A DNA stretch of 64,000 nt from positions 2,895-66,894 of the forward strand of contig JAABTN010000013.1 of the NCBI GenBank assembly GCA_011389895.1, read 5' to 3'. The notes beneath the pieces were generated by a model. It saw nothing but the letters and a program-made list of their open reading frames with translations. It ran no database searches and was not told the DNA's origin. This DNA comes from Maritimibacter sp. GTDB taxonomy: Bacteria; Pseudomonadota; Alphaproteobacteria; Rhodobacterales; Rhodobacteraceae. Positions within the stretch are counted from its first letter, which is position 1; each line of letters begins with the position of its first letter. Below are positions 1-63,062 of this stretch, in pieces. A program made the position numbers and the translations under genes.

Positions 1-635
1 TTGTGGTCATCGTAGAAAATGCCCCCAACGCCGCGCGCCCGTTTGCGGTGCGGGATGAAGAAATACTCATCCGCCCAAGCCTTGTAGCGGTCATGGTAAT
101 CGGCCCCGTGTGGGTCGCAGGCGGCCTTCATGGCGGCATGGAAATGCGCCGTGTCCGCGTCGTATTCGATACAGGGGTTGAGATCGGCCCCACCCCCGAA
201 CCACCATGTGCCGGGGGTCCAGAACATCCGCGTGTTCATGTGAACCGCCGGGGTGTGCGGGTTTTGCATATGGGCGACAAGGCTAATGCCTGAGGCCCAG
301 AACCGGGGGTCGGTCTCCATCCCCGGCACGCCGCGCGCGGCCATGGATTTCTGCGCCGCCGGGCCAAGTTCGCCGTAGACGGTCGAGATATTGACGCCGA
401 CCTTCTCGAACACCCGGCCACCGCGCATCACGCTCATCAACCCGCCGCCCGCGTCCGATCCATCATCGGAGGTGCGCTTGGTTTCGCTTACCGCGAACCG
501 GCCTGCGGCGTTTTCGGCAAAGGGGCCGGTCGTCTGGGTGTCTTCGAGGGTCTCGAAGGCCGCCACGATTTCATCGCGCAGGGTGCGAAACCATGCGCTG
601 GCGCGGGTTTTCTGGTCGTCCATCTGTTCGGTCAT
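1..635 (-). CDS. hemF: Oxygen-dependent coproporphyrinogen III oxidase (5' part; runs off window start)
   Basis: Manual minus-strand translation from ATG at 635 (GGAG upstream): MTEQMDDQKTRASAWFRTLRDEIVAAFE...GRVFEKVGVN...FWASGISLVAH...PAVHMNTR...WWFGGGADLNP...RARGVGGIFYD, the HemF signature segments. Confidence 0.95.
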   Translation of the reverse strand, partial: MTEQMDDQKTRASAWFRTLRDEIVAAFETLEDTQTTGPFAENAAGRFAVSETKRTSDDGSDAGGGLMSVMRGGRVFEKVGVNISTVYGELGPAAQKSMAARGVPGMETDPRFWASGISLVAHMQNPHTPAVHMNTRMFWTPGTWWFGGGADLNPCIEYDADTAHFHAAMKAACDPHGADYHDRYKAWADEYFFIPHRKRARGVGGIFYDDH

Positions 636-729: not shown

Positions 730-1578
730 TCAATGATGATCGGTGTCGACCACGTCGATCACGGTGCGCCCGCCATCCACCGTGACCACCTGTCCGGTCA
801 TGAAGCGCGACGCGCCCGAGGCGAGGAAGTGGGCGGTTTCGGCCACCTCGCTGGCTTCCGCGATCCGGCCCAGCGGCGTGCCGCCGATCACGTCCTCGCG
901 CAAATTCGGGGCCTGCGCACAGGCGTCACGCAGGCTCGCGGACATGACCGAGCCGAAGCCAACCGCATTCACCCGGATCTTGTTCGGGGCGAGCGCCACC
1001 GCCATCGAGCGTGTCATCTGCTCCAACGCCGCCGAGGCGATGGAAAACGCCATGAGCTGCGGGCGCGTGCGCACCGCCGCGATGGACGTCAGGTTGATGA
1101 TCACCCCGATGGATTGAACATCTTCCTGCTCTTCGTCCTCGGCCTGCTGGATCATCCGCTTTGCCACCGCCTGCGTCAGCCTGAGCGCGCTCAGAAGGTT
1201 CTGGTCAAGGAGCGTTTCGACCATCTTGTCATCGGTGTCGAGCGGATCGGACGCCGCCACTTGGCGCGAGGCATTCACAAGGATATCGACCCGGTCGAAG
1301 GCGTCGATGGTGGCCGACAGCAGGTTGGCGATGGTCAGCTTTTCACGCAGATCGCCCGCGAAGATACGCAGGTTGCCCCCCGGCGCGCTTTCTTCGCCCG
1401 CTTCCGGCAACACGTCCATCTCGGGGTTTGAGCCAAATTCTTCGGCGAGCTTGACCTCGTCCATGTCCGCGCAGATCACGTTCGCGCCCGCGTCGGCGAA
1501 TTGCCGGGCGATGGCGAGCCCGACGCCATTTGCTGCCCCGGTCACGATTGCGGTCTTGCCCGCGATGGAAAACGACAT
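730..1578 (-). CDS. SDR family oxidoreductase with non-canonical active site
   Basis: TGAANGVG Rossmann motif, DILVN, RVNAVGFG, TGQVVTVDGG; YxxxK position reads FSIAS. Confidence 0.9.
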   Translation of the reverse strand: MSFSIAGKTAIVTGAANGVGLAIARQFADAGANVICADMDEVKLAEEFGSNPEMDVLPEAGEESAPGGNLRIFAGDLREKLTIANLLSATIDAFDRVDILVNASRQVAASDPLDTDDKMVETLLDQNLLSALRLTQAVAKRMIQQAEDEEQEDVQSIGVIINLTSIAAVRTRPQLMAFSIASAALEQMTRSMAVALAPNKIRVNAVGFGSVMSASLRDACAQAPNLREDVIGGTPLGRIAEASEVAETAHFLASGASRFMTGQVVTVDGGRTVIDVVDTDHH

Positions 1579-51936: not shown

Positions 51937-53121
51937 ATGGCGTCAGGCAACATCCAAATCCTTGTCGGGACGACAAAAGGTGCCTTTCTCATTTCCGACG
52001 ACGGGGATCGACGCGGCTGGCGCGTGACCGGCCCGTTTTGCGAAGGCTGGCCGATCAACCATGTGGTGGGTGACCCGGAAAGCGGTGCGCTTTGGGCCGG
52101 TGGTGGCGACGATTTTCATGGTGCGGGCATCTGGCGCTCGGACAACGGGGGGGAAAGCTGGACCCTCGCGCGGCTTACCAAGGGCATGATGGACGACTGG
52201 GCCGCCAATGATCCTGAATTTGCCGAGATGGTCGGCTGGACCGAGGCGCCTCTGCCTTTTGGCGACGCCTTTTCGCAGGTCTGGTCGCTTTGCCATGCGC
52301 ACGGCACGCTTTATGCCGGGACAAAGCCCGCCGGCCTGTTGCAAAGCCGCGATGACGGCGTGACGTGGGACATGGTCGACGGGTTGACCAATCACCCCTC
52401 AGCCGAAAGCTGGACCCCCGGCGGTGCCGGTCTTGTCCTGCACACGATCGTGGCCGACCCGGGCAATCCCGGCAAGCTCTGGGTCGCCATCTCTGCCGCA
52501 GGCGTCTTTGCCACCGAGGATGGGGGCAAGACATGGGATCGCCGAAATCGCCTGTCAAACGCCGAGGCACAGCCTGATCATGGCCACCCCGCGGGGCCGC
52601 AGGGCGGCGAAACCGGCCATTGCGTGCACAACATGACCCGCGCGCCCGGGGAGGAAGACGTGGTTTACCAGCAAAACCACCACGGCGTCTGGCGCTCGGC
52701 GGATGGCGGGCGCAGTTGGGATGATATCACCGAAGGCCTGCCCTCGACCTTCGGGTTTCCGATCCGGGTGCATCCACGAGATCCGAACACGATCTGGACC
52801 CTGCCGCTGAACGGCGACATGGCGGGCCGGTTCCCGCCCGAGGCCGCCGCAGCGGTCTGGCGGTCGCGCGATGGGGGGCAAAGCTGGCAAGACCTGCGCA
52901 CCGGATTGCCCCAGACGGCGTGTTATTTCACGGTGTTGCGACAGGCCATGGGGGGCGATACGCGCGACCCTGCGGGGCTCTATTTCGGCACCAACAGTGG
53001 ATCGGTGTTCTCAAGCACGGACGAAGGTGACACGTGGGACGAGATTGCCCGCCACCTTCCAACCATCCTCGCCGTCGAGGTGCTCGACCCCGCCGGTCAA
53101 AAAGCGGCACCTGCGACCTGA
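51937..53121 (+). CDS. Asp-box (BNR) beta-propeller protein, sialidase/WD40-YVTN-like, unknown function
   Basis: Six S/T-x-D-x-G-x-S/T-W Asp-boxes; no signal peptide. Confidence 0.85.
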   Translation: MASGNIQILVGTTKGAFLISDDGDRRGWRVTGPFCEGWPINHVVGDPESGALWAGGGDDFHGAGIWRSDNGGESWTLARLTKGMMDDWAANDPEFAEMVGWTEAPLPFGDAFSQVWSLCHAHGTLYAGTKPAGLLQSRDDGVTWDMVDGLTNHPSAESWTPGGAGLVLHTIVADPGNPGKLWVAISAAGVFATEDGGKTWDRRNRLSNAEAQPDHGHPAGPQGGETGHCVHNMTRAPGEEDVVYQQNHHGVWRSADGGRSWDDITEGLPSTFGFPIRVHPRDPNTIWTLPLNGDMAGRFPPEAAAAVWRSRDGGQSWQDLRTGLPQTACYFTVLRQAMGGDTRDPAGLYFGTNSGSVFSSTDEGDTWDEIARHLPTILAVEVLDPAGQKAAPAT

Positions 53122-53164
53122 CAGGCCGCGCGACGCCGGGCTTTGGCGATGGCCGGATGGCCGC

Positions 53165-53413
53165 TTATTGGTAGGCGAGCAGGTCACTGAACCCTGGGGC
53201 TGCGTCGCAGGATTTCGACGTTCGGATCGCGACATAAGAAAAGCCGGTGTCTTCGCGTCTATGCACCAAGAGGACAAGACCGCTTGTATAGAGATATCGG
53301 GCCAGTTCCATGACCGAAAAGGCCGCGCGTTGGGAGCTGTGGCCATAGGCATAGCTATCCCGCGGCCCTGCGGTCTCGACGAAGGCGAGAAGCTTGCGTT
53401 CTTCATGGTTCAA
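53165..53413 (-). CDS. Small hypothetical protein (~82 aa)
   Basis: TTG start (L/M)NHEERKLLAFVETAG...VMELARYLYTSGLVLLVHRREDTGFSYVAIRT; protein-like composition, family not recognised. Confidence 0.45.
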   Translation of the reverse strand: MNHEERKLLAFVETAGPRDSYAYGHSSQRAAFSVMELARYLYTSGLVLLVHRREDTGFSYVAIRTSKSCDAAPGFSDLLAYQ

Positions 53414-53930
53414 TCTACGCGAAAGGGGTCGCATACTGCTGCCGCCTGTTTATTCTGTCTGGTGGGCCCGGCGCCAAGGCCACGCTCATGCAAGTGATGT
53501 GCGTGTGGTCCCGCATGTTGGCTGACACGCCATGTCTCCCAATTTCGCGCGCTGCCGTGAAACAGCACGCGCCGCCTACACGCGCCCTGCATCGCGGCGA
53601 CGGTCAGAAAAGTCCCGACCGAAGCAAAATATTGGGGCGATTGCCTCGGCCGGGGAGTGAAACGACCCGATTCCGCATATCACAGAGCATGATGAGGGCG
53701 CGAAATCAGCCATCCAACGGAGAAGTAGACGAACCTCTCAAAGGCACTTTTTGCTGAATTGGCAAACAGCTGCAATAAATCGAAAGTTTTTTGAGAGTTC
53801 TTTCGTTTCCGACCCAGTGAGAGGGTGATTTACTCTCTGTGCGCGCACGCGGGGGCCAAGGATCGCAATCAACCTTGTCGGATTTGTCATCGGTTGGAAC
53901 AGGCGCGATCCGGATAGGAACCAGACGGTG

Positions 53931-54581
53931 TCAGATGATCCCTTGCTGCGTCGCGATGATGACCGCATGCGCACGGTTTCGCGCATTAAGACGACTGTAG
54001 AGACCGCGCATCTTCATTTTAATGGCGAGTTCGGTCAACCCCAGCTCGACCGCGATTTCCTTGTTGGTCTTTCCCTCGGACACCGATTTCAGGATCAAAC
54101 GATCCCGGCTGGTGAGGCCCCCGGGTTCATCGGTCTCGCCGGGCCTTTGCCGCGACAAGGTGATCGGGACAAATTCATGACCGTCCGCGATGAGCCGAAG
54201 GGTCGCGGGCAAGCTGCGAAGCGGTTGATCTTTCGAAATGTACCCTTTTGCGCCAAGCTCGATCGCCTGCCACACAAAGTCCGGTTCGGTCGTTCCCGAG
54301 AAAACCACGACCGAAGCATCCCGCGCCGTATCGATGACATGCTTGACCGAGCGTAATCCCTGCATGCCCGGCATCGACACGTCGAGCAGAATGAGATCGA
54401 AGGATACGGATTTGCGACGCAACGCATCGAGGGTTTCCGACAGGCTTGCGGCCAAATAAACGTCGAACCCTTCATCGGGCGAGAGTAACGCCTTCAGGGC
54501 TTCCGAGATCATCTTGTGGTCGTCCGCAATCAAGACGGTTATCGTTTCCGCATCAGACGCAAGGGCCGCCTGCCTGTCCAT
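53931..54581 (-). CDS. NarL/FixJ-family response regulator (REC + LuxR HTH)
   Basis: VLIADDH, LILLDVSMPG, GAKGYISK, GKTNKEIAVELG. Confidence 0.93.
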   Translation of the reverse strand: MDRQAALASDAETITVLIADDHKMISEALKALLSPDEGFDVYLAASLSETLDALRRKSVSFDLILLDVSMPGMQGLRSVKHVIDTARDASVVVFSGTTEPDFVWQAIELGAKGYISKDQPLRSLPATLRLIADGHEFVPITLSRQRPGETDEPGGLTSRDRLILKSVSEGKTNKEIAVELGLTELAIKMKMRGLYSRLNARNRAHAVIIATQQGII

Positions 54582-54786
54582 GGAACCATTTTCCGAATTC
54601 ATCACTTGATACGCTCCCTTCCCACGTTTTGGGTGCCGGACAACCGCTTCCTGTCCTTCGGGGTTTCAGTGTACATCTTTCCGCAGGAAAGACGCGCATA
54701 CGACCGTTCGTTTCACACGAATGCCCCACAGCAGACAATAGAGGCACAGAAAGTGTGATATAGTGCTTCATTTGAGTCTGAAAGCG

Positions 54787-54816
54787 AAACCTTAGTTTCC
54801 CGCAAAACTAAAGTTT
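54787..54816. promoter_or_regulatory. Inverted repeat in the divergent promoter of the signalling module
   Basis: aaaccttagttt-N6-aaactaaagttt (11 of 12 complementary). Confidence 0.55.
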
Positions 54817-54872
54817 TGTTTGGGATTCGGATAGTTGTGGTAGAAATCGCGTGCGAACAGAGAAGAAAAATC

Positions 54873-55385
54873 ATGCACATGATCACACGACACGCCCGCA
54901 GCGTCAGCCTTTTGGTCTCCGTCCTCCTGCTACTTTTGCAGGTGAAAGCGGTCCTTGCGCAGGAGGCCCAGGTTCAGCTTACGATACATCTTGATCCCAA
55001 GGCCGAGCCTATCGCTTTGACCGACGCTGACCTGATGGCCTTGGACCAGGAAGCCTTCGTGACATCGACGCTTTGGACCCCTGCACCGCAGCGTTTCTCG
55101 GGCCCCTCATTGCACAGTATCTTGACCATGGCGGGCGCGACCCCACCCTTCGAGATTACGCTGGTTGCGGCGAATGATTATGCCGTGACAATCGGGCCCG
55201 ACCTGATTGACGAAACCTACCCGATCATTGCCAACAGGATCGACGGGGCCGCCTTCTCGGTCCGCGAAAAAGGTCCGCTTTGGGTCATGTATCCCTTCGA
55301 TCACCATAAGAAGTTCAAGAGAGAAGATGTCTACGCCGCTTCCGTTTGGCAGTTGACCGAGATAAAGCTGACCACGCCGGACTAA
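54873..55385 (+). CDS. Exported protein of the molybdopterin-dependent oxidoreductase (sulfite oxidase/YedY) fold family, short and Cys-free
   Basis: Signal peptide ending AVLA; TSTLW..FSGPSL, AANDYAV, IIANRIDG, REKGPLWVMYP; no Cys in the protein. Confidence 0.7.
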   Translation: MHMITRHARSVSLLVSVLLLLLQVKAVLAQEAQVQLTIHLDPKAEPIALTDADLMALDQEAFVTSTLWTPAPQRFSGPSLHSILTMAGATPPFEITLVAANDYAVTIGPDLIDETYPIIANRIDGAAFSVREKGPLWVMYPFDHHKKFKREDVYAASVWQLTEIKLTTPD

Positions 55386-55424
55386 GCGCCGAGCGCCCGG
55401 ACATGATGCGAGGGACCGCAACGC

Positions 55425-58034
55425 ATGGCAAAATTGCAGCAGATCAGCGGACTTTTGGCCCTGATCACCGCCGTGGCCGTTCTGGGGATTCTGGTCAGTC
55501 AGCTCTCGCAAAAAGTCGAGCAGTTCTCGTTTGCCCGTTCTGACAGCGACGCGTGGAATTTTGCCCAGGTCGAGGTTGCCTTTACCCGCCTTCACGCGGC
55601 CTTGCTTGAGGGGCAGACCGAAGTCCGCGCGCAGGGGCGTGTCGACATCGAAGGTGATACCGAGATCCTTGCGCGTTTTGATATATTCTATTCACGGGTC
55701 GATACGGTGTCGGACCGCTACGGCATGTTCCCGGGGCAAAACGCGATGCGCCCGACGCTCGCGCAGATTCGTGAGGCGCGCGACCTTATGGCGGAAACGC
55801 TTGATGCGGGGCGATATCTGTCCGAACCACAGTATTATGCGCTTCTCGAAAAAGCGGAAAACCTGCGCCCATTGGTTCGTAATTTTGCGCTAGCCGCCAC
55901 GCATTCTTCCATCGAGGATCAGGAACGCGTGCGGGTCGACGTATATTCATCTTTGCGCAATGCTTTCATTACCCTGTCCGCACTTGCCTTCTTGTTGTTG
56001 GTTCTGGCCGCCAGTCTTATTCACGTGTCACGCAGGTTGGCGGCGAAGAATATATCTGAGTTGAATATTATCAGGTATTTGACCCAACTGATCGAGGTCT
56101 CGACGGACGGGATCGTTATCCTCGACCGGGATTTGAAAGTTATCAATGTAAACCGCGCGGCGGAGTGGATATTTGGTTGCGATCGTTCCGTGCTTATGGG
56201 ACGGGATGCGATGCAAACCCTGTGCCCTCAGCGCCGCACGGGGGGCATGGAGAAACGGCTACGCGCGCTGTTTGATGACGAATTCGATTCAAAAAACAAT
56301 CTATACCAGGTGCCGATTTTCGCGCGCCGCAAAGATGGTGCCTTGTTCCCGGCCGAGCTGAGCGTTGTCTGTGTCAGAGATCAATCCTGCCAGAAGGTGC
56401 TGGTCGGCTTCGTGCGCGATCTGTCATCGCAACGCAAGGCCCGGAAGGTCACGAAAAGCGCCCTTGCGCGCGCGCGTAATGATGCTGCTGCAAAACAACG
56501 GTTTCTCGCCACCATGAGCCATGAAATGCGCACGCCTTTGCATAGCATCATCTTGGCCAGCGACATGGCGCTGACACCCGACACGCCGACTGTCCCGGAA
56601 AGCTCGATTTCGGTGATTCGTGCCGCCGCGCAAACGGCGCTGGACCAAGTCGAGGATGTTCTTGAGATCGCGCGGGACAGCGCCATTTCGCCAGAGGAAA
56701 AAGTCGAAGACCTTGATGCCGAAGCGGTTGCCAAATCGTTGGTCATGCAGATGCACCCCATGGCGCGGGCCCGAGACAGTCAGCTTGTCTTCAACTGGAC
56801 CGCGCCCGACAGGCTGCGCGGCGCACCGGGTCCGTTTACCAAGATCATACAAAACCTCGTCTCGAACGCGATCAACGCCACGCAACACGGAACGGTCACC
56901 ATCACCGGATCGCCCGGCACCCTGAAGGGTCGCCCTGCCTTGCAGATCGAGGTTGCGGATACCGGGCGGGGGATCAGCGACGCCGACAAGGAAAATGTCT
57001 TTCATGATTTCTTCTCGGGGACTGGCCTGGACGAAAACACCACCACGGGCACGGGGCTCGGGCTGGGGATCGTGAAAAGGGCGCTGGACACGATGGGGGG
57101 CCAGATCACCTTTGAAAGCGCCCTCGGGGAGGGGACAAGATTTCAGGTCTTGATCCCGCTGTCACACCCCCCCGCGCGCCCGTTCGAAAGTAAGACACAT
57201 CCTGTCTCCCGCGACCAGAACGCCGGGCCCGATGGGGCGTCTGATCCGCACCTGGCCCCGCCAAGAAACCCGACAGGCGAGAAGGTTCTCGTGATCGAGG
57301 ATCATGCGACCAATCGACAGCTTCTTGAGGCCATGCTGATCAAGCTGGGCTACGAGGTTACAACCGCAGCCGATGGGGTCGAAGGGGTCCGGTGCGCGAT
57401 TGAAACGGACTTTGACCTGGTTCTCACCGATATTAATATGCCAAGGTTGTCTGGCGACAAGGTTGCAAGATGCCTGCGGCATTCAAGCGTTTCTGGCAAT
57501 GCCTGCATCATCGCCGTGACCGCGAAGTCGGGGGTCTCGGACGCGCAGGGCGCAGCGATCGTCTCCGGAAACATAGACGCCTTCTTGTTCAAACCCTTCG
57601 ACAGTGTGCGGCTGGCCACTGTCATTTCCGAAGCCCGCGAAGAACGGTCCTTCGCGGCGGAAGACATAGAAAAAGAGGTCTCGGACCGCGGTGATCTTTC
57701 GGCCCCCGCGCAAAAGAGACTGGTTGAAACCAGCCCATACCCAGACCTCATGGCGCAGGCCAAGACAGACATGCGGGCGCTTCTTGCACGAATGGCGGAT
57801 GTGACCGGAGCCGATATCATGCAAACCGGCTTTGACGATCTGGCGCGTTTTGCACATTACGTTGCGGGAAGCCTCTTGGTCTTGGGGTTGCTTGACCTTG
57901 GCCATGCAGTGGCCGACGTCGAACGCATGTGTCACGACAGGGATCGGCAAAGCCTTGTCGCCTTCACCATCATCCTTGCGGCGGAAACCGACCGATTGTT
58001 CGGGGATGCGCCTGCGGAAGTCACACCGGCCTGA
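55425..58034 (+). CDS. Hybrid sensor kinase: TM-periplasmic-TM, PAS, HisKA, HATPase, REC, HPt
   Basis: PAS (VNRAAEWIFG...ARRKDGALFPAELSV), FLATMSHEMRTPL, NLVSNA, DTGRG, GTGLGL, LVLTDINMP, FAHYVAGS. Confidence 0.93.
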   Translation: MAKLQQISGLLALITAVAVLGILVSQLSQKVEQFSFARSDSDAWNFAQVEVAFTRLHAALLEGQTEVRAQGRVDIEGDTEILARFDIFYSRVDTVSDRYGMFPGQNAMRPTLAQIREARDLMAETLDAGRYLSEPQYYALLEKAENLRPLVRNFALAATHSSIEDQERVRVDVYSSLRNAFITLSALAFLLLVLAASLIHVSRRLAAKNISELNIIRYLTQLIEVSTDGIVILDRDLKVINVNRAAEWIFGCDRSVLMGRDAMQTLCPQRRTGGMEKRLRALFDDEFDSKNNLYQVPIFARRKDGALFPAELSVVCVRDQSCQKVLVGFVRDLSSQRKARKVTKSALARARNDAAAKQRFLATMSHEMRTPLHSIILASDMALTPDTPTVPESSISVIRAAAQTALDQVEDVLEIARDSAISPEEKVEDLDAEAVAKSLVMQMHPMARARDSQLVFNWTAPDRLRGAPGPFTKIIQNLVSNAINATQHGTVTITGSPGTLKGRPALQIEVADTGRGISDADKENVFHDFFSGTGLDENTTTGTGLGLGIVKRALDTMGGQITFESALGEGTRFQVLIPLSHPPARPFESKTHPVSRDQNAGPDGASDPHLAPPRNPTGEKVLVIEDHATNRQLLEAMLIKLGYEVTTAADGVEGVRCAIETDFDLVLTDINMPRLSGDKVARCLRHSSVSGNACIIAVTAKSGVSDAQGAAIVSGNIDAFLFKPFDSVRLATVISEAREERSFAAEDIEKEVSDRGDLSAPAQKRLVETSPYPDLMAQAKTDMRALLARMADVTGADIMQTGFDDLARFAHYVAGSLLVLGLLDLGHAVADVERMCHDRDRQSLVAFTIILAAETDRLFGDAPAEVTPA

Positions 58035-58102
58035 CGGGGGGCCCGTGGCACCATACCATGCGCACTCCCGAAAGGGTTTCATCGAAACTTATGCGGGCAG
58101 GT

Positions 58103-58115
58103 CAAAACCAAAGTT
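58103..58115 (+). promoter_or_regulatory. Second copy of the module half-site
   Basis: CAAAACCAAAGTT versus CAAAACTAAAGTT at 54803-54815. Confidence 0.4.
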
Positions 58116-58180
58116 GAAAAGCCACGGTCGGCTAGCCGCGTTAACCTCTTTCTACGTTTCTTGGCGAGAGGTGACATCCG

Positions 58181-58726
58181 ATGTTTACGATTTTTGACGG
58201 CCCCGATGCCAATTGTATCTTGCTCAGCGGGACCCGGCCCACGGTTTCGGACCTGTCTCAGTATCTTGAGCAGAACGAGGTCGCGCTTCGCCATGTCACG
58301 TCTTACGAAGCCTTGCACACCACGCTTGAGACCGGAGGGGACGCGAATTACATCCTCGTCGATGTCGATGCGTTCGGTGGCATCGATACCCAGTTCGAGC
58401 GTTTGCGATCGCTCCGCGATGCCTTTCCGGACAAGCCGACAATCCTGCTGTCCGCCGCGTTCGGGAGGGATGAATTCGGCACCCATCGCATGATGCTTGG
58501 GGATGTGTCCCTGCGCGTGCCTGTCCTGCATGCCTCGATCGAAATCGCCTTGCTCCAAGCCCCCGTCAACAATGCGGAATGGCGCGCTCGGTTCGATGAG
58601 ATGCAATATGAACGCTCCAGCCAGCGCGTCTGGTCGGCCGGGTGGTGGAAAACCCTTTCGGCTGGCGTGGACGCCCCAAAGGACCCTGTCAGATTGATGA
58701 ACCACCCCAGTTTCGCGGCAGGTTAA
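58181..58726 (+). CDS. Atypical stand-alone receiver-like protein
   Basis: Predicted receiver strand pattern: CILLSG (no acidic pair), YILVDVD (Asp kept), TILLSA, SLRVP (no KP). Confidence 0.55.
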   Translation: MFTIFDGPDANCILLSGTRPTVSDLSQYLEQNEVALRHVTSYEALHTTLETGGDANYILVDVDAFGGIDTQFERLRSLRDAFPDKPTILLSAAFGRDEFGTHRMMLGDVSLRVPVLHASIEIALLQAPVNNAEWRARFDEMQYERSSQRVWSAGWWKTLSAGVDAPKDPVRLMNHPSFAAG

Positions 58727-58758
58727 CGCCGAATGCGATCTATCCGTTCAGGTCCATG

Positions 58759-59568
58759 TCAATATCCCTTGTAGTCGGGTTTGCGCTTCTCCATGAAGGC
58801 GCGCGGGCCTTCGCGGGCATCTTCGGTCGCCATCACGACCGCTTTCGACGCATTTTCCAGCGCGTAACCTTCGTCGAGCGGACGCCCCATGCTCCGCGTC
58901 ACGGTCTTCTTGATCTCCTGCACCGAGACGGGGGCGTTCTCGGCGATCCGGTCCGTCATCGCCCGCGCCTCGGCCATCAGGTCTTCGGGTGCGACGATCC
59001 GGTTGATGAGCCCGTGCCTTAGCGCGCCTTCGGCATCAAGCGGCACATTGGCCACCATCATCTCCATCGCGGCCGTGTACGGGATCTGGCGCGGCAGTCT
59101 GGCCAAAGCGCCCGCGAAGGGGATGACCCCGCGCGCCGCTTCCGGCAGGGCAAAGGTCGCGCCGGGCACGGCAAGCCGGATGTCGGTCGCGAGCAGGATC
59201 TCCATCCCACCTGCCATGCACGGGCCATTCACCGCCGCCACGATGGGCTTGTACATCTCGAACCCACGCAGCGCGGTGCGGGCATGAACGCTTTCGTCCT
59301 CAAGAAACCGGCGGTCCCAATCCGTTTCAACCGGACGTGCGCCGGAGAGCAGAGGCAGGGACAGTTCAAGATCACCGCCCGAGCAAAACGCCTTGTCGCC
59401 GGAACCGGTCAGGATGACTGCGCGGATCGTGTCGTCCTCGGCGATCTCGGCCATTGCGTCGGCCATCAGGCAGGCGACTTCCGGGCTGATCGCGTTGCGC
59501 CGTGCAGGGCGGTTGAATGTCAGCGTGGCGACATGTCCGTCGCGTTCGAACAGGAACGGCGCGCTCAT
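58759..59568 (-). CDS. Enoyl-CoA hydratase/crotonase family
   Basis: FNRPARRNA, AFCSGGDL, AAVNGPCMAGGMEI, FALPEA, EDAREGPRAFMEKRKP. Confidence 0.93.
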   Translation of the reverse strand: MSAPFLFERDGHVATLTFNRPARRNAISPEVACLMADAMAEIAEDDTIRAVILTGSGDKAFCSGGDLELSLPLLSGARPVETDWDRRFLEDESVHARTALRGFEMYKPIVAAVNGPCMAGGMEILLATDIRLAVPGATFALPEAARGVIPFAGALARLPRQIPYTAAMEMMVANVPLDAEGALRHGLINRIVAPEDLMAEARAMTDRIAENAPVSVQEIKKTVTRSMGRPLDEGYALENASKAVVMATEDAREGPRAFMEKRKPDYKGY

Positions 59569-61286
59569 GTGCGGGGCACCGGCTTGAGCGTGCCGTCTTC
59601 GATGGCGCGCGACGCCTGTATGCGCAGGGCGAATTTCTGGACCTTGCCGTTGGCGGTCATGGGCAAGGTTTCGATCCCGACGATGTATTTCGGCATCTTG
59701 TGGCGGGCCATGTTCGCGCGGCAGAACGCCTGAAGTGTCGCTGGGTCGATGTCGTCCCCCGGCATCGGCACGACATAGGCGCAGATTTCTTCTCCGAGAT
59801 CGGGGTCGGGCACCCCCACGACCTGCGCTTCGCTGACGGTGATATGGTCGAGCAGACAATCCTCGATCTCGACCGGGTAGACGTTTTCGCCCCCGCGAAT
59901 GATCATGTCTTTCAGACGCCCGACGATCTTGAGATGTCCGGTCTGCGCCAGTTCGGCAAGGTCGCCGGAATGCAGCCAACCGTCGGCATCGATCGTCTCG
60001 GCGGTCTTTTCGGGCATGTCGAAATAGCCGGTCATCGTGTTGTAGCCGCGGATGCACAGCTCGCCGCTTTCCCCCCAGCCGCAGGTTGCGCCGGTTTCCG
60101 GATCGACAATCCGAATCTCGGTATGGGGCAGGGGCGTTCCCGCGGTGGTGAGTTGGTCCTCGAAACTGTCGGTGGGGGTGGTCAGCGTGATGACCGGGCT
60201 GCACTCGGTCATGCCCATGAGCACGAGCGGGTCACCGCCGGTCTTGTCCTTCATCGCGCGCAGAAGGCTTGGCGGGATGGTCGTGCCGCCGGTGAAGGTC
60301 TTGCGCAAGGTGCGCGTGTTGAAGCTGGCCCAATCGGGATGCTCCATCATGCGGGTCATCATGGTGGGCACCGCGTTCAGGATCGTGGGCGCGTGGGCAT
60401 CCCAAAGCTCCAGCATGCGACGCGGTTCGAAGCTGTCCATCGTCACGAGATGGCCGCCCGAGACGAGCATCGTCATCACGTTGCAGACGCAGCCCGCCGT
60501 GTGGAAGAGCGGCATGGCAGACAGCAGCGTATCGTCCGGGCCGAACCCGCCGCGATCCGCTGTCAGCCGCGCGTTGTTCACTGTCGAGCGGTGGGTCAGC
60601 ATTGCGCCCTTGGGCTTGCCGGTGGTGCCCGAGGTATACTGGATCTGCGTGACGCTATCGCTTTCAACCGATGCCTGACGCCTGGCCAATGCCTGCGCCG
60701 GCGTGTCCTTTGCAAGCGTGCGGAGGTGTGCAAACGGCATTGCGAAGTCGGGCGCGTCGCCGACGGCGATCAGGGCCTGAAGGTCCGGGAGCGTCGCGCC
60801 GCCTGCGCGCCGTCCGCCGGTGGTGTCGGCCAGGTCGGGCATGAGTGCGGTCAAGTGTGCTGCAATGTTGTTCGCGCGGGCCATCGGCGAGAACACCAGG
60901 GCTTTCGCGCGGCTCTGGGCGAGAAGATACGCCAATTCGCCCTGCAGAAGCGCGGGGTTCACCGTGACCAGCACTGCCCCCGCCTTGGCCAGCGCGTATT
61001 CGAGCAGGATCCACTCGGCGCCATTCTGGGCCATGACCGCGACATGGTCACCGCGCTCGATCCCAAGCGAGATGAAACCTCGCGCGATCACGTCCGCGTC
61101 GGCCTTCAATTTGCCATAGGTCCATGTGGTGGTGCCCGCCCCCGCCTGTTCATCGACCGTCACGGCGGGGCGGTCTCCATGGGTCCGGGCCTGCTGGTCC
61201 AGCATGCCGCCCAAGGTCACATCGAGAATGGCCGGACCCGATGCATCAGGCCGCCACCATGCGATGTTTTCCGTATCTGTCGTCAT
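59565..61286 (-). CDS. Acyl-CoA synthetase (AMP-binding)
   Basis: YTSGTTGKPKG, GMTECSP, GWLHSGDL, IIRGGENVYPVEIE, GKVQK. Confidence 0.95.
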   Translation of the reverse strand: MTTDTENIAWWRPDASGPAILDVTLGGMLDQQARTHGDRPAVTVDEQAGAGTTTWTYGKLKADADVIARGFISLGIERGDHVAVMAQNGAEWILLEYALAKAGAVLVTVNPALLQGELAYLLAQSRAKALVFSPMARANNIAAHLTALMPDLADTTGGRRAGGATLPDLQALIAVGDAPDFAMPFAHLRTLAKDTPAQALARRQASVESDSVTQIQYTSGTTGKPKGAMLTHRSTVNNARLTADRGGFGPDDTLLSAMPLFHTAGCVCNVMTMLVSGGHLVTMDSFEPRRMLELWDAHAPTILNAVPTMMTRMMEHPDWASFNTRTLRKTFTGGTTIPPSLLRAMKDKTGGDPLVLMGMTECSPVITLTTPTDSFEDQLTTAGTPLPHTEIRIVDPETGATCGWGESGELCIRGYNTMTGYFDMPEKTAETIDADGWLHSGDLAELAQTGHLKIVGRLKDMIIRGGENVYPVEIEDCLLDHITVSEAQVVGVPDPDLGEEICAYVVPMPGDDIDPATLQAFCRANMARHKMPKYIVGIETLPMTANGKVQKFALRIQASRAIEDGTLKPVPRT

Positions 61287-61351
61287 GTGCCTAACTCCTC
61301 CACGCCAATTTCATGCTGCCTCGATCCCCGACGACAATGCTGGACATGATT

Positions 61352-61388
61352 TTGATTTGTTGCTACCAAATAGTTTGATAACAATCAA
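61352..61388. promoter_or_regulatory. AT-rich imperfect inverted repeat, candidate MarR operator
   Basis: ttgatttgttgc...gataacaatcaa between the divergent ligase and marR genes. Confidence 0.4.
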
Positions 61389-61419
61389 TCTGTGATCAAC
61401 CAATCCATGATCAACCGGA

Positions 61420-61941
61420 GTGCCGGATATGACGCAAACAGGTGATCTATCGAAGACGTCGCAGGGGGCGCAGGGAACGCAGGATGCTGCGCTGAGCGAT
61501 CTCTTGCCGCTCGGGGCCGATCTTGAAAACTCGTTGAACTTCCGCATTCGCATGGCTCAGATCCTGTCGTTTCGTCATTTCGAGAAGCAGCATCCAGGAT
61601 ACGGCGGTGCGTCGCGCTTTCTGGGTCTGTTGTCGATCATCCGGGCGAACCCCGGCAGCCCGCAAAACCGGCTTGCCGAGGCCGTGGGTCTCCAACGATC
61701 CAGCCTGGTGCCGATCCTCGACCGCATGGAGGACGAGGGCATCGTGGAGCGTCGAAGCGTCGAAGGTGATCGTCGTTCCAAGGCCGTGTTCCTGACGGAA
61801 AAAGGCGAGGACGTCGTGTCCGAACTGAGCGAGTCGGCGCTGGAGGTGGAGAAATACATCAGCGCGGGTCTGACGGAAGAACAGCGCTCTGCGCTGCTCC
61901 AGGCGCTTGACCAGGTCATCTATAACCTGCGGAGGCTTTGA
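61420..61941 (+). CDS. MarR-family regulator
   Basis: LAEAVGLQRSSLVPILDRMEDEGIVER...DRRSKAVFLTEKG. Confidence 0.93.
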   Translation: MPDMTQTGDLSKTSQGAQGTQDAALSDLLPLGADLENSLNFRIRMAQILSFRHFEKQHPGYGGASRFLGLLSIIRANPGSPQNRLAEAVGLQRSSLVPILDRMEDEGIVERRSVEGDRRSKAVFLTEKGEDVVSELSESALEVEKYISAGLTEEQRSALLQALDQVIYNLRRL

Positions 61942-62033
61942 CTTCGCAGATACGAAGAAGGTCGCGCGAAGGAGGTGCGACCGCACACATGGACGGACCG
62001 ACTGTGTTGGCCGTCGTTTTAGGGAGGAACAAG

Positions 62034-63062
62034 ATGAAAAACCTACTTCTTACCGCCGTTGCGGCGACCGCAATCAGCGCACCGCTGACCGCGTCCGCGC
62101 AGGACGTGACACTCGCCTTGTCACATTGGGTGCCGCCGGTGCATGCGCTTCAGCCCACCGGCTTCGAGCCATGGGCGGAGTCGATCAACGAGGCGTCAGA
62201 CGGGCGTATCCAGATTGACATATTCCCGGCGCAGCAGCTTGGCGCGGCGCCTGACCACTACGACATGGCCCGCGACGGCATCGTGGACATTGGCTTCGTC
62301 AACCCGGGCTATCAAGCCGGGCGTTTCCCGATCATCGCCGCCGCCGAGCTTCCGTTCCTCGTCTCGAACGCCACCACGGCGTCGAAGGCGCTGCACGAAT
62401 GGTATATGCAGTATGCCGAGCAGGAGATGGGGGATGTTCACGTCTGCCTCGTACACCTGCACGATCCGGGCACCTTCCACGCCACGGAAGGCCCGATCGC
62501 GGGCCCCGAGGATCTGGCGGGTAAGAACGTCCGCCCGCCGCAGGGCACCATCGCCAAGATGATCTCGGAAGCAGGCGGGAGCCCGGTTCAGGTGCCGGTC
62601 CCGGAAATGCGCGAAATCTTGTCGTCGGGCGGCGCCGACATGACCGTGGGTCCGTGGAATTCGATCATCCTCTTCGGGGTGGACGATGTGGTGACCCATC
62701 ACCTCGATCTGCCGCTCTACTCGGTGGCATTCGTCTACGCCGTGAACAAGGGCGTCTACGAGGGCCTTTCGGACGAGAACCGCGCGGTGATCGACGATCA
62801 CTGCACACCGGAATGGTCGCAGCAGATCGCGACCGGCTGGGCCGAAGTGGAATCGGGAAGCTACCCGGACTTCGCCTCCCGCGAGAACCACACGCTTTAT
62901 ACGCCCAACGACGAGCAGATGGCCGCGTGGAACGAGCTTTCCGACAGCAGCCGCGCGAACTGGTTCGAGGAAGCGGCAGAAGCGGGTCTTGAAGATCCGG
63001 AAGCTGCCCTCGCCGATCTCGAAGAGCGTCTGCAAGAAGCTGGTGGCGCCTTCGGCCAGTAG
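62034..63062 (+). CDS. dctP: TRAP substrate-binding protein DctP, TarP-like
   Basis: Signal peptide; DHYDMARDG, NPGYQAGRFP, HDPG, VRPPQGTI, IDDHCTPEW. Confidence 0.92.
   Translation: MKNLLLTAVAATAISAPLTASAQDVTLALSHWVPPVHALQPTGFEPWAESINEASDGRIQIDIFPAQQLGAAPDHYDMARDGIVDIGFVNPGYQAGRFPIIAAAELPFLVSNATTASKALHEWYMQYAEQEMGDVHVCLVHLHDPGTFHATEGPIAGPEDLAGKNVRPPQGTIAKMISEAGGSPVQVPVPEMREILSSGGADMTVGPWNSIILFGVDDVVTHHLDLPLYSVAFVYAVNKGVYEGLSDENRAVIDDHCTPEWSQQIATGWAEVESGSYPDFASRENHTLYTPNDEQMAAWNELSDSSRANWFEEAAEAGLEDPEAALADLEERLQEAGGAFGQ

Follow-up and report, generated by a model that had tools for sequence, protein, structure and literature searches.

Organisation of the locus

The window analysed here (i.e. 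the whole 64,000-nt stretch at positions 2,895 to 66,894 of contig JAABTN010000013.1, from the Maritimibacter sp. assembly GCA_011389895.1) carries, at 53931-58726, four genes that quite probably form a PruR-DTB signalling module, i.e. a pterin-responsive phosphorelay. They encode a response regulator on the minus strand and, in the opposite direction, a 170-aa exported protein (the pruR homologue), an 869-aa hybrid histidine kinase and a 181-aa protein (Table 1). The gap between the pruR homologue and the kinase gene is exactly 39 bp, and that between the kinase gene and the 181-aa gene is 146 bp. An earlier note on this DNA, made from its letters, had listed a divergent NarL-type regulator, an exported Cys-less protein with likeness to sulfite oxidase and YedY, a hybrid kinase 39 bp further on (with a periplasmic domain, PAS, HisKA, REC and HPt) and a receiver-like protein, in a region of lower GC (guanine plus cytosine) content, and each of these elements was recovered. 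At 57.5%, the GC content of the module falls at the 0.04th percentile of equally long windows across the genome, whose mean is 63.4 ± 1.6%.

Table 1 Features of the module, with positions in the window and the basis of each assignment
Feature	Positions	Strand	Basis or remark
NarL/FixJ-family response regulator, REC + GerE helix-turn-helix	53931..54605	-	Pfam
Control region, divergent, 267 bp	54606..54872		47.6% GC
pruR homologue, 170 aa: exported, Cys-less, truncated sulfite-oxidase (SUOX) fold, predicted pterin-binding	54873..55385	+	profile, AlphaFold2 model, Foldseek
Key codons of the pruR homologue	W68 55074; N101 55173; Y103 55179; W159 55347	+	alignment
DTB-type hybrid (unorthodox) histidine kinase, 869 aa	55425..58034	+	Pfam, NCBIfam, profiles
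Kinase domains, N-terminal part (residues)	transmembrane segment 1 ~9-27; periplasmic ~28-182; transmembrane segment 2 ~183-205; PAS 218-337; HisKA 356-417		
Kinase domains, C-terminal part (residues)	HATPase 471-580; REC 621-734; HPt ~775-842		
Kinase periplasmic sensor domain, DcpA-type	55506..55970	+	hhalign
Motif codons in the kinase periplasmic domain	W44 55554; A52 55578; Q48 and E50 between	+	
H366 codon, HisKA autophosphorylation site (SHEMRTP)	56520..56522	+	invariant in 20 homologues
D669 codon, phospho-acceptor of the internal receiver	57429..57431	+	invariant, with D626, T699 and K723
H811 codon, HPt phosphotransfer His (AHYVAGS)	57855..57857	+	invariant
Stand-alone receiver-like protein, 181 aa, probable pseudo-receiver	58181..58726	+	AlphaFold2 model, Foldseek, family alignment

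The exported 170-aa protein

The N-terminus of the 170-aa protein, with a basic n-region, a hydrophobic stretch of at least 12 residues and the motif VLA-QEA, reads as a signal peptide of approximately residues 1-29 without a twin-arginine motif; residues 11-30 form a separate, low-confidence helix in the AlphaFold2 model. Pfam and NCBIfam scans of the single sequence returned nothing relevant, and the protein was identified through profile and fold searches alone. A homology search yielded 73 relatives, chiefly from the Roseobacter group and annotated as 'oxidoreductase', several of them with PF00174 (Oxidored_molyb), and 36 of the 73 were used to build a profile and an alignment. Searched against the PDB, this profile retrieved the PruR structures 7KOS (E 1.3e-41), 7KOM (1.7e-37), 7RKB (3e-35) and 7KP2 (1.3e-34), with sulfite oxidases far behind (E 0.1). 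The AlphaFold2 model (mean predicted local distance difference test score, pLDDT, 91) led to the same structures, and the first seven Foldseek matches were all PruR (7KOM, 7KOS, 7KOU, 7KP2 and 7RKB) with target-normalised template-modelling (TM) scores of 0.83-0.88 and root-mean-square deviations of 2.0-2.5 Å. Sulfite dehydrogenase, sulfite oxidase and YedY came after these, the target-normalised TM scores of the enzymes being 0.25-0.40. The relation to the SUOX fold that had been proposed for this protein thus stands, but PruR structures rank above both sulfite oxidase and YedY.

Crystal structures of PruR are available from Agrobacterium (7KOS/7KOU), Vibrio vulnificus (7KOM), Klebsiella (7RKB) and V. 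cholerae (7KP2), and describe a truncated SUOX fold in which Trp70 replaces the Mo-ligand Cys (Greenwich et al., PNAS 2024, PMC11194511). In A. tumefaciens PruR the pterin ring is sandwiched by Y104 and W160 and receives a hydrogen bond from N102; these three residues contact neopterin and are required both for function and for cross-linking to the partner protein DcpA (PMC11194511). Their counterparts in the 170-aa protein, N101, Y103 and W159, are invariant in the 36 homologues. W68 aligns with W70 of 7KOS, i.e. with the position of the Mo-ligand Cys, and is nearly invariant in the homologues, while the residue before it is Leu, where most PruRs have Pro. Identity to the crystallised PruRs is 26-35% (approximately 33% to that of A. 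tumefaciens), and the mature domain of approximately 140 aa is half the size of YedY. By profile, alignment and predicted structure, the 170-aa protein belongs to the described PruR family of periplasmic pterin-binding proteins.

The public annotation of the homologues ('molybdopterin-dependent oxidoreductase' or 'oxidoreductase'), together with the fact that some of them pass PF00174, would fit an active periplasmic molybdoenzyme of the sulfite oxidase/YedY type, for which the adjacency of the kinase gene would be incidental. This is extremely improbable, since there is no Cys anywhere in the sequence and a Trp at the Mo-ligand position, the mature domain has half the length of YedY, the signal peptide lacks a twin-arginine motif, PruR, with its truncated molybdenum cofactor (Moco) cleft, is matched far better than any enzyme (see the TM scores above), and the kinase is linked to the gene in 75 of 80 loci (see below). 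The earlier note had pictured a dead molybdoenzyme fold acting as a receptor that feeds the kinase. The loss of the catalytic Cys and the reading as a periplasmic ligand receptor both survive, but the class of signal is not new. In fact, its statement that no characterised signal is known for such a module has to be withdrawn, as the PruR family binds pterins (according to the crystal structures) and the kinase-linked type has already been named PruR-DTB (PMC11194511).

PruR homologues also occur on 387-653 plasmid records, among them numerous conjugative plasmids of Klebsiella, E. coli, Salmonella, Shigella and Serratia. On the plasmids they are all annotated as 'molybdopterin-dependent oxidoreductase' or 'hypothetical protein', and some overlap or adjoin a hybrid kinase gene. 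The assignment corrects a public label (the former of the two) that is borne by hundreds of plasmid copies, including those on enterobacterial conjugative plasmids. As a side observation, many PruR homologues start with a Tat-like (twin-arginine translocation) R-R-x-F/L-L motif, where the 170-aa protein has R-H and its 86%-identical relative R-R; going by these N-termini, the question perhaps arises whether some PruRs are exported folded, with the pterin already loaded.

The hybrid kinase and its periplasmic domain

Two transmembrane segments in the kinase flank a periplasmic stretch of ~155 aa. Pfam recognises PAS, HisKA, HATPase_c and Response_reg on the protein and, weakly (E 0.036), Hpt; the best NCBIfam match of the cytoplasmic part is TorS (183 bits, below the cut-off). 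For the C-terminal 120 residues, a profile of 41 such tails matched LuxU (1e-10) and the HPt domain of ArcB (9e-7), as well as plant AHPs, CheA P1 and BarA. H811 and G815 are invariant in the tails, and the H-x3-G signature is present in at least 66 of 73 related kinases. Judged by these profile matches and residues, the tail is a genuine HPt domain.

A word-indexed search with the periplasmic region returned hybrid kinases only (zero GGDEF/EAL proteins), and the link to DcpA was therefore made via annotated plasmid loci and hhalign, with the N-termini of the EAL proteins that follow PruR homologues on Klebsiella and Aminobacter plasmids as the DcpA-type comparison set. A profile of 52 kinase N-termini aligned with the Klebsiella and Aminobacter N-termini at hhalign probabilities of 96.2% and 95.3%, respectively, over 178-188 columns and with the Trp in register. 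By this profile comparison, the kinase and DcpA-type proteins have homologous periplasmic domains.

Two residues, written together as WX7E, have been reported as invariant in DcpA-type periplasmic domains, a description of the family and not the published search criterion (PMC11194511). Where DcpA-type proteins have W-x3-Q-x3-E, the kinase of Maritimibacter has W44-x3-Q48-x-E50-x-A52. W44 is invariant. In 70 related loci the residue at +8 is Glu in 40, Asp in 27 and Ala in 3 (two from Salibaculum and one from Pacificibacter), which means that the +8 Glu is not strictly invariant in this branch of kinases. The Celeribacter kinase keeps it, even though it is a closer relative than that of Pacificibacter. 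Because the homology extends over the full length of the domain and this near relative retains the Glu, the kinase is filed in the DcpA-type family despite A52. The near-invariant periplasmic residues W44, Q48, D40, R91, D127, R152 and R170 are all retained.

The divergent regulator and the predicted phosphorelay

The product of the minus-strand gene matches Response_reg (E 1.8e-22) and the GerE/LuxR helix-turn-helix (E 1.5e-12) in Pfam. Its best NCBIfam match is NarL, with 98.7 bits against a cut-off of 250, and because this is so far under the cut-off the protein should be regarded as a member of the NarL/FixJ family and not as a NarL orthologue. The acidic pair (D28-D29) and the phospho-acceptor (D75) are in place, and from its sequence and position the regulator is presumed to be the terminal acceptor of the relay. 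Since H366, D669 and H811 of the kinase and D75 of the regulator are all present, the His-Asp-His-Asp path is complete on paper.

The fourth protein

The 181-aa protein has no match in Pfam, Response_reg included. Its AlphaFold2 model (pLDDT 84) shows the strand order of a receiver and a long C-terminal helix, without alpha4 (residues 92-108 form a loop). Foldseek matched the model almost exclusively to receiver domains at target-normalised TM scores of ~0.73-0.78 (typically ~0.75). In the PDB profile search the matches to receivers were weak (E 0.016 and above). Of the catalytic quintet, D61/D63 and S91 are kept, but S16-G17 stand in place of the acidic pair and R112 in place of the beta5 Lys.

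There are 19 close homologues of 150-180 aa, and weaker ones occur in other pruR loci. When 1.84 billion representative proteins were scanned in full with HMMER, the family came to 955 clusters at 50% identity, of which 714 score E 1e-10 or better. Its members mostly stand alone, are 150-260 aa long and carry no Pfam domain, and the family has no Pfam model. Among 80 representatives of the family the positions after beta1 are S, G, A or T, and at the beta5 position 66 have Arg and 4 have Lys, while the family has a (near-)invariant set of its own, consisting of R79, R103, D108, N130, N131 and W134. The sequence features thus indicate a receiver-derived protein that is probably not phosphorylated. 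One representative appeared as a fusion to GGDEF-EAL; this was a partial match and possibly an artefact of gene calling, and it was not used.

This has consequences for the 'four-component phosphorelay' of the earlier note: its four phospho-sites are there (three in the kinase and one in the regulator), but the 181-aa protein, with S16-G17, R112 and no alpha4, is unlikely to be a phospho-acceptor. Nor, at the level of whole genomes, is the family tied to PruR. Of 80 loci, 11 have a homologue no further than 7 kb from pruR, at varying positions relative to kinase and regulator. In 40 relatives the matches are weak and partial, and located away from pruR. Four genomes of the same genus have such a weak match, two of them without pruR.

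Conservation of the module and its origin

The conservation of the gene order was assessed across 185,579 species genomes, in the 80 loci that were related best, almost all of them from Rhodobacterales. The kinase core lies directly downstream of pruR in 75 of these, and a lack of co-occurrence elsewhere, which the earlier note had named as grounds for refutation, is clearly not what is seen. Of the 75 loci with enough flank, 50 have a divergent NarL-family regulator no more than 1.2 kb upstream of pruR, and 60 have one anywhere in the flank. Beyond the regulator, no recurring family was seen among the genes of 46 related loci. The genome of Maritimibacter itself encodes a single PruR and a single matching periplasmic domain.

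For each of the four proteins, the closest relatives belong to the marine Roseobacter group. PruR copies from the same genus are 39-40% identical, those from Salibaculum and from a Roseovarius metagenome-assembled genome 57-63%. A search for pruR found it in 5 of 9 genomes of the same genus and in 13 of 24 of the same family. In view of the low GC content, the divergence from the same-genus PruRs and the patchy presence of pruR, the module looks laterally acquired. Marks of a mobile element were sought around the low-GC island, but there is no tRNA, and direct or inverted repeats on its flanks do not exceed what chance would give.

Relation to known signalling systems

PruR-DTB systems, which combine a DcpA-like periplasmic domain with a kinase part resembling TorS/BaeS and frequently containing PAS and REC, make up 23-29% of ~5,600 pruR-linked pairs and are 'frequently proximal to response regulator genes' (PMC11194511); a recent review draws a protein of Ruegeria pomeroyi DSS-3 as an example (PMC13259868, 2026). 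The present locus agrees with this description in the pruR gene immediately upstream, in the two transmembrane segments around a DcpA-type domain, in the TorS/BaeS-like kinase with PAS and REC, and in the response-regulator gene close by. It also agrees in its patchy distribution, in a class that is frequent in Alphaproteobacteria including the Roseobacter group. The module is assigned to PruR-DTB because the features of the class (PruR homologue, adjacent DcpA-type domain, kinase output and nearby regulator) are all found. It differs in having Ala instead of Glu at the +8 position of WX7E, in the C-terminal HPt domain (undrawn in the published example, and shared with at least 66 of 73 related kinases) and in the pseudo-receiver gene, with which the modules of this sub-branch are associated (11 of 80 loci).

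With the PruR-DcpA system of A. tumefaciens (Atu3496-Atu3495) the locus shares the PruR fold with its N/Y/W ligand residues and, as the next gene downstream, that of a partner whose periplasmic domain is homologous. With regard to PruA (Atu1130), it shares a PruA-like reductase beside uvrC. The output, however, is different, being cyclic di-GMP (c-di-GMP) turnover by GGDEF-EAL domains in Agrobacterium and a His-Asp-His-Asp relay to a DNA-binding regulator here, and the two PruRs are just ~33% identical.

In their logic, TorT-TorS-TorR of E. coli, LuxP-LuxQ-LuxU-LuxO and NspS-MbaA are similar, since in each a soluble periplasmic binding protein gates a membrane sensor, and TorS is likewise an unorthodox kinase (HisKA-REC-HPt) that feeds one regulator. 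However, TorT, LuxP and NspS have periplasmic-binding-protein (Venus-flytrap) folds and not SUOX folds, and in these systems the periplasmic domain of the kinase is unrelated and the ligands differ. The module is by descent a PruR-DTB system, i.e. the kinase-output sibling of PruR-DcpA, and its likeness to TorT-TorS-TorR and LuxP-LuxQ is one of logic. With the sulfite-oxidase-fold proteins SorA, SorT, chicken sulfite oxidase and YedY/MsrP, the PruR homologue shares the core beta-sandwich of the Moco domain and the conserved Tyr (Y103 here), but it has no Mo-ligand Cys, its cofactor cleft is truncated, and at ~140 aa it comes without a dimerisation or haem domain, so that no catalytic role is expected.

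Knowledge of how PruR signals in response to pterins is confined to the Agrobacterium branch that acts on c-di-GMP, although a quarter or more of the ~5,600 catalogued pairs belong to the kinase branch. The locus is a clean single-copy example, with one PruR, one kinase, an adjacent regulator, a candidate pteridine reductase and the full set of phospho-sites, and either the locus itself or a culturable relative (Salibaculum halophilum, Celeribacter baekdonensis or Ruegeria pomeroyi) would be a convenient system for studying the pterin response of the marine Roseobacter group.

Possible pterin supply and the nature of the ligand

Another contig of the genome (C47) encodes a short-chain dehydrogenase/reductase (SDR; L092:988-1839, minus strand) that passes NF006597 with 327 bits and whose next-best models are pteridine reductase, TmpR, Leishmania PTR1 and dihydromonapterin reductase. 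It lies just upstream of uvrC (the N-terminus of which is at L092:2-664, minus strand), and in A. tumefaciens pruA (Atu1130) is found immediately upstream of uvrC (Atu1129) (PMC4488946). On sequence and gene position, the SDR is a plausible candidate for the counterpart of PruA. Separately, on the Aminobacter aminovorans plasmid pAA01, pruR and its EAL partner are divergent from a gene for 6-carboxytetrahydropterin synthase (PTPS/QueD-like), an arrangement that directly links a PruR pair to pterin chemistry on the genome level.

It could be that the same architecture serves another ligand in this branch, and that a small planar or redox-active compound (for example an algal metabolite, a fragment of folate or a product of flavin or lumazine breakdown) is sensed in place of a pterin that the cell makes itself. 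The in vivo ligand is unsettled even in the case of A. tumefaciens PruR, the identity to the crystallised PruRs is no higher than given above, the protein has L-W where most PruRs have P-W, and with marine Roseobacter-group bacteria as the nearest relatives exogenous signals are plausible. Against this, the ring-contacting residues N101, Y103 and W159 are invariant across the 36 homologues and a PruA-like reductase is encoded in the genome, which makes a ligand other than a self-made pterin unlikely.

Proposed mechanism and its weighing

That the module is real and coherent, and of a kind already known, follows from the computations above, which cover family membership, fold, contact and phospho-site residues, and the gene order with its conservation. 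For the ligand, the docking, the sign of regulation and the target genes, the work on Agrobacterium PruR-DcpA serves as the model, by analogy with which signalling would proceed as follows. The 170-aa protein would be exported by its ordinary signal peptide and bind a small, non-molybdenum pterin in the periplasm, of the reduced monapterin or neopterin type, to whose synthesis the PruA-like pteridine reductase beside uvrC would contribute. The pterin ring would be held between Y103 and W159, with a hydrogen bond from N101. Liganded PruR would then dock on the helical DcpA-type periplasmic domain, at the helix face with W44 and Q48, and thereby shift the kinase/phosphatase balance of the kinase. 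Phosphate would pass from H366 to D669 and H811 in the kinase and on to D75 of the NarL-family regulator, upon which transcription would change. The most likely role of the fourth protein would be to bind other proteins and so modulate the kinase or the regulator, or serve either as an adaptor, and not to accept phosphate. The target genes may be those for surface polysaccharide or attachment, as such genes flank related modules.

A number of points weigh against a pterin-responsive relay at this locus. The ligand, the docking and the output are all extrapolated from a system that is linked to c-di-GMP, and the literature, as far as it could be searched, holds no biochemical or genetic test of any PruR-DTB system. 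With the actual pteridine-reductase models, the uvrC-linked SDR does not reach the curated cut-off, and the immediate flanks (mannitol dehydrogenase, a BNR-repeat protein and the acyl-CoA ligase/hydratase cluster) are uninformative on the target genes. Furthermore, the kinase departs from the WX7E signature, with A52 at +8 and E50 at +6, and docking on PruR may be altered or lost if the +8 Glu contacts PruR. A substitution in PruR that tracks the change from Glu to Ala in the kinase was sought and none was found: just three PruR columns set the Ala group apart, and Celeribacter, where the Glu is retained, has them as well. In addition, the PAS domain could provide an independent cytoplasmic input.

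Taken to their limit, the latter points would describe a decayed or rewired system, in which the kinase is deaf to PruR and signals via its cytoplasmic PAS domain and the pseudo-receiver, with pruR as a passenger. The rarity of the +8 Ala (3 of 70 related loci, plus this kinase), the lack of a compensating change in PruR and the location on a low-GC, probably imported island would all be in line with this. However, pruR is intact with every ligand residue kept, the other near-invariant periplasmic residues of the kinase (W44, Q48, D40, R91, D127, R152 and R170) are conserved as well, and the same Ala occurs together with an intact pruR in Salibaculum (2 loci) and Pacificibacter, which points to a maintained state and not a one-off lesion. 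Such decay is therefore considered quite improbable.

Another variant, which is doubtful but somewhat less so, is that a sub-branch comprising this genome, Salibaculum, Pacificibacter and some Roseovarius-like metagenome contigs represents a rewired form of PruR-DTB, which has given up the periplasmic Glu and recruited a widespread, unnamed family of pseudo-receivers as a fourth component, to tune or redirect the flow from the HPt domain. If so, a characterisation of the module would, for the first time with a pterin-sensing two-component system, reveal an output and a mechanism, as well as a function for a new receiver-derived family. The pterin-responsive PruR-DTB module nevertheless remains the preferred reading of the locus.

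Possible outputs

With regard to the output of PruR-DTB modules, polysaccharide genes are found beside or around related modules, encoding epimerase/dehydratase, Poly_export, glycosyltransferase and O-antigen ligase. Among the first genes downstream in related loci, 15 of 68 encode an NAD-dependent epimerase/dehydratase or a polysaccharide-export protein, a count that is a hint and not a statistic, because the loci are related to one another. In Ruegeria sp. B32, a pruR-kinase copy on plasmid NZ_CP081107.1 even lies inside a polysaccharide cluster. These neighbours hint at exopolysaccharide or attachment as the output, and would fit the role of PruR-DcpA in attachment and polysaccharide production.

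On the Ti and At plasmids of Rhizobium/Agrobacterium, the gene after pruR and the kinase encodes an 'HD domain-containing phosphohydrolase' that bears a Gene Ontology term for phosphorelay. This protein may be a response regulator of the HD-GYP type, which would tie the kinase branch back to c-di-GMP.

Control region and flanking sequences

An imperfect inverted repeat (54782-54798 and 54805-54821; 17-nt arms, 82% complementary, 6-nt spacer) is present in the control region, 50-90 bp upstream of the pruR start, and could be a candidate operator for the divergent LuxR-type regulator. The control region also contains a single sigma70-like match on the plus strand (54712-54739). Transcript ends are not placeable, as no intrinsic-terminator-like site was found in 53600-59000, versus 5.8 expected.

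The downstream flank (58759-63062) encodes an enoyl-CoA hydratase and an AMP-binding acyl-CoA ligase on the minus strand, followed by MarR and TRAP DctP on the plus strand, and no link of this flank to the signalling module was seen. On the other side, the GC content falls in the ~800 bp between the BNR-repeat gene and the regulator (53130-53930), where only short open reading frames without family matches are found (examples in and near this interval are 53488-53757 on the plus strand and 53011-53406 on the minus strand), and this interval may be the edge of the imported island.

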